Origin: Octopus vulgaris
Taxonomy: Eukaryota
Length of the DNA stretch: 64,000 nt
Assembly: GCA_951406725.2 (NCBI GenBank)
Contig: OX597815.1
Span: forward strand, 131,998,001 to 132,062,000
Direction: 5' to 3'
The notes under the pieces are model-generated. The model made no database searches and was not told the origin of the DNA. It saw only the letters and a program-made list of their open reading frames with translations. The translations under genes were made by a program, and so were the position numbers. Shown piece after piece: positions 1,835-63,549 of this stretch. The stretch's first letter is position 1, and each line of letters starts with the position of its first letter.

Positions 1835-1918
1835 CTTGGGCTGATGACAGGAATGTTGATATAGGTATGTATTTCTAGCATCTCTATATCTAACTAACCC
1901 AGAAACGGCGTTCTCAAG
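1835..1918 (+). ncRNA. Type-I hammerhead ribozyme motif with long stem II
   Basis: CTTGGG-CTGATGA-[GTTGATATAG...CTATATCTAAC hairpin]-GAAAC-GGC-GTT-CTCAAG. Stem I CUUGGG/CUCAAG (6 bp, one G-U); core complete; stem II closing pair imperfect. Confidence 0.6.
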
Positions 1919-4341: not shown

Positions 4342-4523
4342 CAGTGTGATTGAACCCGAAACAGCGTGGTTGAGAAGAACAATTCTTATCACACGCAGCC
4401 ACACCTACGCCTACATGTAAAAATATACATGAACATGTATATATACATATTTTAATCAGCATATTATATAGGTATACATACGTATGGACCTATTCTTATA
4501 TATATGTGCATAATATGCATACC

Positions 4524-4574
<51 letters not shown>

Positions 4575-4586
4575 AATGTATTGTTT

Positions 4587-4617
<31 letters not shown>

Positions 4618-4804
4618 CAGTGGGATTGAACCCGAAACAGCGTGGTTGAGAAGAACAATTCTTACCACACACAGCCACACCTACGCCTACATGCAAAAAT
4701 ATACATGTACATGTATATATATACATATTTTAATCAGCATATTATATAGGTATACATACGTATGGACCTATTCTTATATATATGTGTATAATATGCATAC
4801 CTAT

Positions 4805-4844
<40 letters not shown>

Positions 4845-4866
4845 AATGTATTCTTTTATATATATA
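4342..4866. repeat. Local tandem duplication (about 275-bp unit: SINE-1-like head + flank + TA tract)
   Basis: 4342-4597 and 4618-4866 are near-identical (ttgaacccgaaacagcgtggttgagaagaacaattctta...tttaatcagcatattatataggtatacatacgtatggacctattc). Confidence 0.85.
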
Positions 4867-7103: not shown

Positions 7104-7189
7104 TTCCTACGATCGTTTCAGTGGTTTATTCCGAGAGTACATGTGAATCTTACTTTTCACTTCGAAGGAATGCTGCCATCATCAGGGAA
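7104..7189 (-). ncRNA. Type-I hammerhead ribozyme motif with long stem II
   Basis: Minus strand: TTCC-CTGATGA-[TGG..ATTCC...GGAAT..CCA]-CT-GAAAC-GATC-GTA-GGAA. Stem I UUCC/GGAA, palindromic stem III ACGAUCGU, GUA cleavage triplet. Confidence 0.7.
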
Positions 7190-58492: not shown

Positions 58493-59367
58493 TCATACAC
58501 ACATGCATATGTGAATATACATATTTTTTGTGTATGTATGTATTATGTGTGTATGAATATATAAATATATGTGTTTTCAACGACACAAATATATACAACA
58601 TTGATTTATTGAAGGGTACACAACATGAGTTGCACTAAACACATGTTATAACAGTAACTTCGAAATGTTGCCAGGGGCGGCTTATACGATCAATATATGA
58701 AGGCCAGCAAAGATATTAAATTTTTTTTTTGTACCTAGGAAACATGGGATTCGCCAAGTTAGCAGGAGTCAAGGATCAATAAAATTCATGCTATGATTAA
58801 ATGACAAAGATTAGTACTAAATTTGTGAAGAAGTGTTAAAATTTCGAGAATGAAATGATGTTGCTCATGGTAAAATGGAGGCCAAGATATTTATAGAAGA
58901 GATACGTTGGTACAAATCATGAATACAAGAAGTTAGATAGGTGTAAAATTCAATAGGCATGTGATTTTTTTCACCACCAACGTCGTATTCCTAACAGCAT
59001 ATATGCATCGATACACACATCTTCATATATCTGGTGTCATTATCATGTTATCACATACGTTCATTCGCACATTTACTTATCTCTCTGTATTCTCTCATTC
59101 TCTTCCTCTTTAAATGTACGTATATATAAAAGCATATCACAAAATCACCGTATCGAATAAACTATCAAATTTTGCTTCCAATATTAGTCACACTATACCT
59201 CGCACTATTGCAGCTTTGAAATGATCCCCCCATCAGCTAGTCAGTTAGGCCATATATATGTGTGTGTGTGCGTGTGTGTGTGAATGCGTGCGTGTGTTTG
59301 TGTGACTGTATGTGTAAATATATATATACATAAAATCTAAATAATCAACATGATATCAAGAGGTGAT

Positions 59368-59451
59368 GCAGTACGACCGTTTCAAGTGGCTCCATTTAAT
59401 TGAAAAATGCAATCATTACAACAATTTCAACGATGGGCAATCCTCAGCCTC
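59368..59451 (-). ncRNA. Hammerhead motif, left-arm copy (stem I partly decayed)
   Basis: Minus strand: GAGG-CTGAGGA-[long hairpin]-GAAAC-GGTC-GTA-CTGC. Confidence 0.5.
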
Positions 59452-59664
59452 ATAAATAACTAGAATTTTTAATCAGTTGAACTCATTAATATAATTTTAC
59501 TCAAATTCTCTAATAAAGCAAGGAGGAAAGAGTCCATGTTGCTACTAATGTATCCTTAGCTACATAAGTAGCAACTTGGACACTTTCCCTTTTCTTGCTC
59601 TATTAGAGAATTTGGGTAAAGTTATATTAATGTGTCCAACTGATTAAAAATTCTATTTATTTAA

Positions 59665-59748
59665 GCAGCTGAGGATAGCCCTGCATTTAAACTGATGTAA
59701 TGGTTGGATTTTTTAATTAAATGGCGGTGCTTGAAACGGCCGTACTGC
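59665..59748 (+). ncRNA. Type-I hammerhead ribozyme motif with long stem II
   Basis: GCAG-CTGAGGA-[TAGC..CATTTAA...TTAAATG..GCTT]-GAAAC-GGCC-GTA-CTGC. Stem I GCAG/CUGC; palindromic stem III ACGGCCGU. Confidence 0.7.
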
Positions 59749-60094
59749 ATCACCTCTTGATATTCCGTTGCTTATTTTGATTTTATTCACCTTACTTTTG
59801 AGTTGTACGGATAATACCGCACTGGCTTGGCGCTTCAACGTAAGTACCTAACTCAACTGAATCTCAATTATATATATATATATATATACATATGTATACA
59901 CACACATACTCCCACTCATACACACACATACTTATGGTTATAAGAGGGAGAAATGTTATAAATCCAAAAGCTATTATTTATCTCCATTGAAGAGTAGATG
60001 TATTAGAAAACAAAATACAGCGTTAGTTACTGCTGTGCGGAAATACGACACCCACTGGCGAGAATGGACTGGTACACTACATAAAAATAGTAAC

Positions 60095-61070
60095 AGTCTG
60101 AGTACGTGAGTGGTGGCAAGTCCATGTCATCTTCCAACGTCGTCGGACGCTGGACAGGCGGTCCGATGAAAATGCTTGGGGTCTGGTTTGATCCAGTCCA
60201 CCAGACAGAGAAGAATTGGAGCGAGGTTACGGGCTGGGTGGCGTCCATGACTGAGACCTGGTCTGGATGGAGGCTACCCCTAAAAGGGAGGGCGGATGTA
60301 GCAAATATATTTATCTCATCTGTTATTACCTATCGCCTAAACGTCGTGCCGTGCCCCGATTCCTGGCAAAAGTTGAAACGCATGCTCTTTTACATCTTGT
60401 GGAAGGGCAGGCAGTCTCTTATAAGATACTATATCTGCTGCCAACAGCCTGTAAAGGGTGGGTTAGGGATGCCATGACTAAAGATGTGCGGGCATGCGCT
60501 GAGGTTGAAACATCTCTGACTATACCTGAATGGTGAGCGGGTGTGGTCTCCGTTCGTTGATGAGATATTTCCAAGGTTAACCTCTTTTGGTAAACTGGAA
60601 TGCTGGATCAGACGTAGACCAAGGTGAGAGCTAGGCAAGCAGATTGTCGACAGGCCTCGTGCTTCTCTCCCGAACGAGCAGTGGGGATACCAACTCTGTG
60701 TACTATAGAGGTCTGGTACAAGGCAAGTGTGATGACGACCTGGGGGAGTCTTCGGGTTTCGATGAAAGTCAGCTTTCCGACCTGCATCGAAGTACTTTTG
60801 GTCCTGGACCTATGGACAACATACAAGAGGTCCCTAGTTTGGCTGTTCTTCCGATGGGCCTTGCCATTTCGGGATAAACTGGCGAGACACGGCCTTACAG
60901 CTTTGCCTATGTGCCCATGCTGCGGGCAGAACAACGAAACTGTTCTTCATGCAATCGTACAGTGTTCGAGTCTCTGTGTGTTCCTACCGAACGAGTATTT
61001 TCACATCTGGGGAGAGTACAGCTGTCAGCCGAATCGATTATTGAGATCGTTCAACCATATCCTGTAAAAG
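60095..61070 (+). mobile_element. Decayed L1/Tx1-like LINE fragment (post-RT region + zinc knuckle)
   Basis: PMKMLGVWF..EKNWSEV..LKGRADVANIFISSVITYRLNVVPCP..GGLGMP; CPCCGQNNETVLHAIVQC; homologous to 48700-49600. Confidence 0.85.
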
Positions 61071-61379: not shown

Positions 61380-62291
61380 GAATACAACTAATCATTGATT
61401 AGAACGCACACCGGTTAATGAACGGTGTCATGTCTATTATTCCCTGAGAAAAAAATATTATGTGTAAGGGAGGTAAGTAGTTCTGGATTTGGTGCAATTA
61501 GGGTAGATATAGATCTATAATGTGAATGGTGTATAGGATGTATGGGGGTTAGTGGTATTAATTGAAAGGTTAGTAGTGTTCTGTATGACGTTATGTGTTC
61601 ATATATAGTTGGAGAAGATATTTATTGATGAAACTCTTTATTCATTCTTTGTTGCACTGATGTGATCTGTGAACATTGATAAAAGGGGAAAATTAGGAAG
61701 TTAGGATTAAGATTCCTAGCACACCTTTCTATGTGTTCACTAACCTGCAACTGTCTGTATTTTGGGTGGCAGATTTTTTCTTTGTGGAGAGGGGTTCTTC
61801 GACGTATTGATATTCCCGTTTGGTCAATATAATTGTTACCACATCCTAAGCATGTCATGGCATAGATTAGATTTTCTGAGGCACAAGTGAAATTTGATTT
61901 GATCCTAAATATTTTACCTTGTTTAAAGTGGAATTATGAGCCCTTGAAAAGGTGGGGGCATGTACTACAGTTAGGTCGACCACATTTTTTCACATTTTGC
62001 TCTCTTGTTAATGGATATAATCTTGTGCTAGTTAATATTTTTCTGCGATTTAGGTTGCATTTTGCCTTTGATAATTTTGTTTGACCTTAATATTTTGTTG
62101 TTTTATCTCCTGTGAGGATGGGAAGATTTTGGGTGATAATGTTGAAGGCTTCGTTGTTTCTAGGGTTATGTGTGGAGATGTACGGGAGTATTATTAAGTC
62201 TGGTTTAGTACTTCAGTTGGCTTCCCTTAATGTTTGTATATCTATTTCCTTAGCTCGTTTGATGCCATCATTTTTTAGGGATATTGGGTAA

Positions 62292-62629
62292 GGGTAAAGA
62301 CCCCCTTCGGTCATGAATGACCATGGGATTGCACCTAGAAAGTTACCCTCCTAGACACAAGTCTAGGCAAGGTTGTTTATGGAAGACCAGCAGTCGCCCA
62401 TGCATACCAGCCTCTCTCCACACCACCAGTGTTATCCAAGGGAAAGACAAAGGTCGATACAGCTTGGCACCAGTGACGTCGCAACTCATTTCTACAGCTG
62501 AGTGAACTGGAGCAACGTGAAATAAAGTGTCTTGCTTAAGAATACAACACGCAGCCCGGTCCGGGATTCGAGCTCACAACCTCACGATCTTAAGCTCGAC
62601 GCTCTAACCACTGAGCCATGCGCCTTCAC
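62292..62629 (-). mobile_element. SINE family 3 inserted into the Penelope ORF with a perfect 14-bp TSD
   Basis: TSD gggatattgggtaa at 62278-62291 and 62630-62643; head gtgaaggcgcatggctcagtggttagagcg...gagctcgaatcccgg. Confidence 0.9.
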
Positions 62630-63549
62630 GGGATATTGGGTAATGTCTTTTAATTAGTATTGATCTAAATTCAAGGAGTCTTTGTTCACGAGTGTAGGTG
62701 TCAGAAACAATGGTACAGATTCTTTTCGCTAGATTATAAGGTATATTAATTTTTATGTGTTTGGAGTGGCATGAGTTAAATAGTAGGTATTGTTTAGAAT
62801 CTGTAGGTTTATAAAAGATGTCTGTTTCTATGTAGTTATTGACTATTTTAATTAGGATGTCAAGAAAAGGGAGTTGCTTACTGTTGTGTTCCATGGTGAA
62901 TTATATGTTGCTATTAATATTGTTAAGCATTATTTTGAAATAGAGGAGTTTGTCCATGCTGTCTTTCCAAACTAGAAAGCAATCATCCAAATACCTCTTC
63001 CAGTTCTCTTTTAAATAGCGATGAAATGAGGTGCCATATTTTTGTTATGATGATTGATATAACTTAAGCTCTAGGTAACCCATTACAAGGTTCGCAATCA
63101 CTGGAGCAGCTCGGGTTCCAATTGCAATCCCACATTTTTGTCGATGGTAAACTGTATCGAACATGAAATAGTCGTTCAGTAGGATGAATTTGAGTTCTGC
63201 GATTATGAATCAGTGGTTAATGTGTCCTGGGATCTCTTCTGGGTATTTTTCTAGCCAGAAGGTGATGACCTCTATACCATAGTCATGTGGGATATTGATG
63301 TACGAATTCACCACATCGAATGATACTAACAGGGTTCTTTCAGTTACTGTCTTCGGGTCTTCTATAACATATACATCCCATACACCATTCACATTACAGA
63401 TCTATATCTACCCTAATTGCACCAAATCCAGAACTACCTACCTATGGCAACAGACGCTATGAAAAACCGATGAATAAAAAGGAAGTTACTCTAATAGGTA
63501 AAAACAAGAAACACAATAAAAGATATAAAATACATTATTTTGTTATTAG

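Follow-up and report, generated by a model that had tools for sequence, protein, structure and literature searches.

Head-to-head Penelope-like pseudo-LTRs with hammerhead motifs in a (TA)n tract of the Octopus vulgaris genome

The Hydra clade of Penelope-like elements (PLEs) is defined, in the accessible text of its description, by a C-terminal endonuclease, the motifs DKT and RWK, a CxCx5C linker, CxxC and CxH motifs, the lack of CCHH, hammerheads, and (TA)n targets (Craig et al., 2021, PMC8557442). Inverted orientation of the 5' copy, and a tail at one end only, are already known from PLEs (PMC8557442; Arkhipova et al., 2013, PMC3846280): in Adineta Pen2/Pen2a (PMC3846280) and Anolis Poseidon PAc (PMC11167929), both described in partly accessible papers, inverted pseudo-LTRs (pLTRs) stand head to head and a tail is found at one end, the arrangement met again here. 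Frangieh et al. (2024, PMC11167929) showed that both strands of the target are cut and extended by a Penelope protein, which initiates copying from two internal positions, one at each border of the tail, and for which hammerhead cleavage is dispensable in vitro.

Two other hammerhead-bearing systems invite comparison. Ambisense viroid-like circular RNAs adopt a rod fold and carry a ribozyme in each polarity. Retrozymes, in the accessible portions of PMC7229834 and bioRxiv 10.64898/2026.07.22.740005, require two motifs on the same strand. The locus considered here lies in a window of 64,000 nt, the whole stretch of Octopus vulgaris DNA analysed, and reads best as a single decayed insertion of two 5'-truncated 3' ends of a Hydra-clade Penelope-like element, head to head in (TA)n, likely copied from both sides of one cut (probability about 0.9).

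Anatomy of the insertion

The palindrome consists of two arms (59330-59552 and 59561-59786) around an 8-nt loop (59553-59560); 190 of 223 aligned bases are complementary (85%), with one 3-nt gap, and the ungapped core is 193 nt at 85%. The loop is family sequence of the right copy, not a spacer: the family match of that copy begins at 59551, 10 nt deeper in the parent than that of the left copy, and the two overlap by 2 nt. Because a short family end lies on the left and a tailed end on the right, the insertion is taken to run from 59330 to 59870, 84 nt beyond the palindrome on the right side only (Table 1). The two flanks carry the same 15-nt TA-rich sequence in direct orientation, a candidate target-site duplication that is weak evidence because of its low complexity. 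The longest stop-free frame within 59330-59868 has 44 codons, TA/TG microsatellites flank the palindrome on both sides, and the 64-kb window as a whole is AT-rich and microsatellite-dense. Much of this had been recognised in a first-pass annotation, whose inverted arms and 8-nt loop, outward-reading CUGAGGA...GAAACGG(C/U)CGUA hammerhead core in each arm, lack of coding capacity and microsatellite flanks are all borne out; its interval 59330..59786 describes the palindrome well and stops short of the element end, missing the tail to ~59870 on the right. The suggestion of an inverted pseudo-LTR pair also holds, the arms mapping to an ordinary Penelope-like pLTR in genome copies.

Table 1. Features of the insertion and its borders, in window coordinates
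Feature	Positions	Strand	Basis or remark
Left arm: inverted, 5'-truncated 3' pseudo-LTR copy with family short end, without tail	59330..59552	-	85.9% to L068 over 227 nt; 8.1% from family majority
Right arm: 5'-truncated 3' pseudo-LTR copy to the short-end position, including the loop 59553-59560	59551..59786	+	8.0% from family majority
One-sided 84-nt tail	59787..59870	+	comparison with L120, L116, L111, L114, L128
Type I hammerhead motif, core 59669-59744, predicted cut after 59744	59665..59748	+	motif, fold prediction
Type I hammerhead motif, core 59447-59372, likely inactive	59368..59451	-	motif, fold prediction
Head-to-head junction, 2-nt overlap; adjoins a short hairpin seen in unrearranged copies	59545..59565	.	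family alignment
Candidate target-site duplication, left, 15 nt	59318..59332	+	direct repeat, weak
Candidate target-site duplication, right	59878..59892	+	direct repeat, weak

Other repeats share the window. Just to the right of the insertion, the 3' portion of a LINE survives in decayed form at 60094-61064 (+), zf-RVT domain included (E=1e-8), and broken Penelope-like fragments at 61625-62900 (-) show 63% identity over 89 residues to an unrelated Penelope-like family, L037. That family forms a large head-to-head inverted pair of its own, L037:3-1940 (-) and L037:4513-6804 (+), and has a 764-residue stop-free frame with a Pfam RVT_1 match above the cut-off, a GIY-YIG match below it and a Cx4CxxC linker; it looks young. 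At 4342-4851, a 278-bp tandem duplication takes in a TA tract and a portion of a SINE-like sequence.

The parent family and its clade

A search of the octopus's own genome with the 457-nt palindrome gave 3353 first-look candidates, and the best 40, once scored, yielded 94 matches, most of them covering a single arm at 85-91%. Upstream of the arm, family copies hold a ~1.2-kb AT-rich 3' UTR, a GIY-YIG endonuclease, an Asn-rich linker and RT. In L068 the order inverted arm, RT, linker, endonuclease, 3' UTR, arm, tail is unbroken; L071, L027, L030, L086 and L088 are arranged similarly, and many longer copies bear an inverted arm at the 5' end. The arm follows the ORF in L068 and L071, while arm and tail precede it in L120, L116, L111, L114 and L128, a partial tandem of the pseudo-LTR kind; arm, tail and ORF start are contiguous in direct orientation in L120 and L116. 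Where a 5' pLTR is present, the 84-nt tail sequence runs on and reaches the start codon after ~65 nt more. The family unit is estimated at ~4 kb from landmarks in L111 and L068.

The protein domains were read from broken copies, no intact ORF being present among the loci fetched. The GIY-YIG Pfam match (E=3.5e-4, 21.2 bits) falls just below its cut-off of 22.6; RT fragments of the family went unmatched by Pfam RVT_1, which matched only one homologue, weakly. RT homologues number 142, many full-length at ~700 residues, and two full-length ones align across RT and endonuclease of genomic copies (tblastn). The closest named homologues, from Octopus sinensis (68%) and Argonauta, are annotated as uncharacterised or kinase-like. 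RT and GIY-YIG linked to a terminal repeat (in broken copies elsewhere in the genome), a type I hammerhead in the pLTR (judged by core motif, stems and covariation), and a 5'-truncated inverted copy with a one-sided tail are features of endonuclease-plus PLEs; the tail, at 84 nt, is longer than the 30-40 nt of PLE tails in the accessible literature. From these comparisons of sequence, the arm is identified as the 3' pseudo-LTR of a high-copy Penelope-like retrotransposon with RT and a GIY-YIG domain at the C terminus.

Copies of the family have two fixed end positions 84 nt apart, one lying 42 nt and the other ~126 nt beyond the hammerhead cut site. In the flanks of family copies the short end equals position 59786 and the tailed end ~59870; the tail is what lies between these two copying end points. 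The 147 distinct ends over all fetched loci divide into 57 short, 75 tailed and 15 other, with a dinucleotide repeat after 47 of the short and 58 of the tailed ones. Head-to-head pairs are common, with variable junctions and spans of ~250 to 4700 nt. Exactly one tail is present in 26 of 31 classifiable pairs (38 rows), and in 23 of 28 (p=4.6e-4 versus 50%; five pairs break the rule) after dropping three whose tail is that of a 5' pLTR leading into the ORF, figures that express a bias in a non-random sample and not a measured rate because loci were sampled by best BLAST score. Folding the ends of L120 and L116 for conserved hairpin boxes gave two folds that disagreed. Pen2/Pen2a (PMC3846280) and PAc (PMC11167929) resemble the octopus family in that their targets are AT-rich, their copies end at two points downstream of the hammerhead and their ORFs have Asn-rich inserts. 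According to the same partly accessible sources, PAc ends inside the ORF whereas the octopus family ends upstream of the start codon, and the window copy retains no ORF sequence, unlike the Pen2/Pen2a and PAc insertions with which it was compared.

The motifs of the family point to the Hydra clade. A C-terminal GIY-YIG domain is joined to a CxCx5C linker (CNCRVKSHC), PADKT shows DKT in place of DKG, CELC..E and SCVH supply CxxC and CxH beside conserved E and N, and translations of L070, L071, L120 and L029 contain no internal CCHH apparent by eye. Insertion into (TA)n is evident from the TA, CA or TG repeat that follows 105 of 132 short or tailed ends. On the strength of these motifs, with published Hydra proteins compared by eye, the family would be assigned to the Hydra clade. 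With that clade, as far as the available text of PMC8557442 goes, it shares RT plus C-terminal GIY-YIG, DKT, an RW-type motif, CxCx5C, (TA)n targets and a type I hammerhead whose stem II has U.U as its basal pair. The supplement lists Penelope-13_HM as having an inverted copy, 5'-truncated, with hammerheads on both strands, the arrangement seen here. The same excerpts bring out differences: RWI or RWM stands where Hydra has RWK, which itself was not seen in the octopus family; the unit is ~4 kb, against <3 kb in Hydra, a length given as typical and not as defining, and has an 84-nt tail, a ~1.2-kb 3' UTR and an Asn-rich linker; and stem II is 57 nt long, versus short stems and 3-9-nt loops in at least 22 Hydra rows.

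Identity with Hydra-1_Obim was ruled out by the different hammerhead sequence in the portion of that source available, and two stem III search words of the family gave 0 matches in the accessible supplement of PMC8557442. Neither the family nor its 57-nt stem II was found in the open literature searched, including passages of PMC13282606 and the PMC8557442 supplement; the family may already be catalogued.

Hammerhead motifs

Rfam reports no hammerhead at the gathering score over the window and none at E<=10 over 59200-59900, and its miRNA-precursor matches near the palindrome are generic hairpins far below gathering scores. The evidence for calling a ribozyme is thus the core motif, together with the stems and the covariation across the family. 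Of 111 copies, 74 have an intact core, and 51 combine it with the full 4-bp stem I. For the three-stem fold, an alignment of 11 copies picked by hand from several subfamilies shows pairing in 93% of cells and two-sided changes at 6 of 26 pairs, both counts exceeding shuffled and slid controls; because the structure was partly drawn from the same alignment, this covariation is support, not proof. Single-sequence folds of the hammerhead regions are no better than shuffles (z -0.02, 0.67, -0.65). The long stem II with compensatory changes is an unusual hammerhead variant, one that Rfam misses and that searches limited in stem length would likely miss.

The right-arm hammerhead has a 4-bp stem I (4 of 6 family pairs kept), an 8-nt palindromic stem III and a 57-nt stem II with several copy-specific broken pairs; a free fold of the arm is predicted to pair the catalytic core. 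In the left arm, stem I is mismatched at its third pair and the base of stem II is broken, and that hammerhead is likely inactive. Predicted rod energies are -267.5 and -272.6 kcal/mol for the two strands. Within the read-through rod of -267.5 kcal/mol, the hammerhead stems are predicted not to form (pair probability 0 to six decimals), and imposing them would cost a predicted 72 kcal/mol. The hammerhead is probably a passenger, functional in the parent lineage, as covariation suggests, and predicted to be off in the window copy.

In a divergent subfamily that includes L124, L127, L132 and related loci, stems I and II show compensatory changes and stem III is a perfect palindrome; the basal pair of stem II is G-C in L127. 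The window also has two patterns that resemble a hammerhead core and have long stem II regions, at 7108-7185 (-), where stem III is palindromic and stem I not obvious, and at 1841-1912 (+); neither matches the reference copy of the Penelope-like family.

Origin, decay and significance

The two arms of the window copy have drifted apart. Their distances of 8.0% and 8.1% from the column majority compare with a median of 6.5% over 111 distinct copies, their 85% identity lies at the 5th percentile of random pairs (median 89.5%, 60 full arms), and of the 18 and 17 variants that they carry only one is shared. Because each arm is ~8% from the majority and only one variant is common to both, the rod is decaying, not maintained; gene conversion or selection preserving the rod was ruled out by the independent variants and the 5th-percentile identity. 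Over the family, paired arms share 2.18 variants per 100 nt, versus 0.63 after shuffling (at most 1.20 in any of 500 shuffles; based on 32 of 40 outward pairs). This excess, which is partly driven by L005, L099, L003 and L006, fits a common source per insertion; a same-template origin is unsupported for the window pair, since a single variant is shared there.

Another near-symmetric palindrome of the same family, L004/L005 (G000:C10:95786191-95786648), has arms with 97% identity, and 26 of their 29 departures from the majority are common to both; it is either a younger insertion from a divergent subfamily or a product of gene conversion, and is a better live-hairpin candidate than the window palindrome. 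A look-up of public sequencing runs listed no RNA run as a holder of the sequence, a result that does not bear on expression. Among the contig pieces listed for four public runs, two presumed-RNA runs gave only short family fragments, and from the two others came a piece resembling the locus that covers 59390-59511 and equals the unique flanks in depth; the junction is bridged by none of the pieces listed (1522 further pieces lie outside those listed). Summed contig depth over the arms is far above that of the flanks and is not a copy number.

The main reading, a single head-to-head insertion, can be set out as a series of steps. The endonuclease would have cut both strands of a TA tract, and reverse transcription would have started at two internal sites, one per DNA end. 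Both copies would have stopped after ~230-320 nt, their ends would have been joined at the 2-nt microhomology, and the arms would then have drifted independently. The same element may, more tentatively, have been inverted by fold-back, one copying event priming itself or switching template at a local hairpin and copying back to the short end. Where a junction is near-symmetric and falls at a short self-complementary word, fold-back accounts for it just as well: junctions are near-symmetric in the window, L002, L003, L004/5, L006, L149 and L165, and in the parent sequence those of the window, L149 and L165 coincide with short hairpins or with palindromic words. Junction palindromes have been read as self-priming in the accessible text of Arkhipova et al. 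(2013, PMC3846280), and one tail per insertion is expected under fold-back too. However, the near-symmetric set was enriched by using the palindrome itself as query, strongly asymmetric pairs cannot arise by a simple snap-back (in L068, a 226-nt inverted arm abuts RT ~3.1 kb from the 3' end), and the fixed stopping point of the second arm is not easily explained.

The remaining explanations fare worse against the same data. The first-pass annotation had raised the idea of a foldback mini-element and proposed a genome BLAST for the palindrome recurring as a unit. Four other loci do match the whole 457-nt query, but at 76-81%, below the 85-91% of single arms, and their junctions all differ from that of the window and from one another; a 96-nt junction query fully matches only itself, with all 65 non-self matches one-sided (best 40 of 86 candidates scored), and pair spans vary as described above. 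The recurrent junction, internal sequence and fixed ends of a foldback element or MITE were not found among the loci compared, and a non-autonomous unit moving as one piece is very unlikely. That annotation had named a unique junction, together with arms that map to an ordinary Penelope pLTR, as grounds for giving its proposal up; the junction is unique among scored candidates and the arms map to a Penelope-like pLTR, so the sequence parts of that test came out against it.

Its likeness to ambisense viroid-like RNAs proves superficial. Both cores match the consensus and the rod is very stable, as would suit a functional rod-like, ambisense, viroid-like or retrozyme-like RNA with switching hairpin and ribozyme folds. 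The predicted competition amounts to little, given the cost of forming the ribozyme within the rod; the rod itself, also part of the earlier proposal, is predicted. Because each strand combines one ribozyme motif with one antisense copy and has one cut site, with no dimer partner or tandem unit, neither a unit-length nor a circular monomer would be released; the arms have decayed independently, and copy-specific changes damage stems I and II. Set against ambisense viroid-like RNAs, the window holds chromosomal retrotransposon DNA with no circular unit and no sign of RNA replication at the locus. Animal non-LTR retrozymes (PMC7229834; bioRxiv 10.64898/2026.07.22.740005, each accessible in part) are similarly non-coding and low in GC, with a type I hammerhead and a weak palindromic stem III, but their units lie head to tail and two same-strand ribozymes free a monomer, whereas the window has a head-to-head pair with one ribozyme motif per strand; the arm belongs to a coding element, unlike retrozymes. 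Head-to-tail non-coding units with two same-strand hammerheads are not present here, and a functional RNA of this sort is exceedingly improbable. Palindromes are also a known artefact of long reads, and no listed contig piece bridges the junction; an assembly artefact from a fold-back read is nevertheless scarcely credible, as it would give near-identical arms where these differ at 15% of positions, and the arms end at different biological end points.

The window feature is a dead retrotransposon fragment in an already published arrangement. A wider significance, which we regard as speculative and improbable, would be that head-to-head stubs serve as a trigger for host silencing of the whole family and that the rule of one short and one long end records a dimeric Penelope enzyme starting at two fixed sites. 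If so, read-through transcripts would form 100-230-bp hairpins that shut their own hammerhead, and these would feed small-RNA or A-to-I editing pathways directed against thousands of related copies. The insertion adds one more case for how Penelope-like elements insert, and the family's two sharp ends 84 nt apart, its one-tail bias and its many junctions could separate two-ended priming from fold-back.
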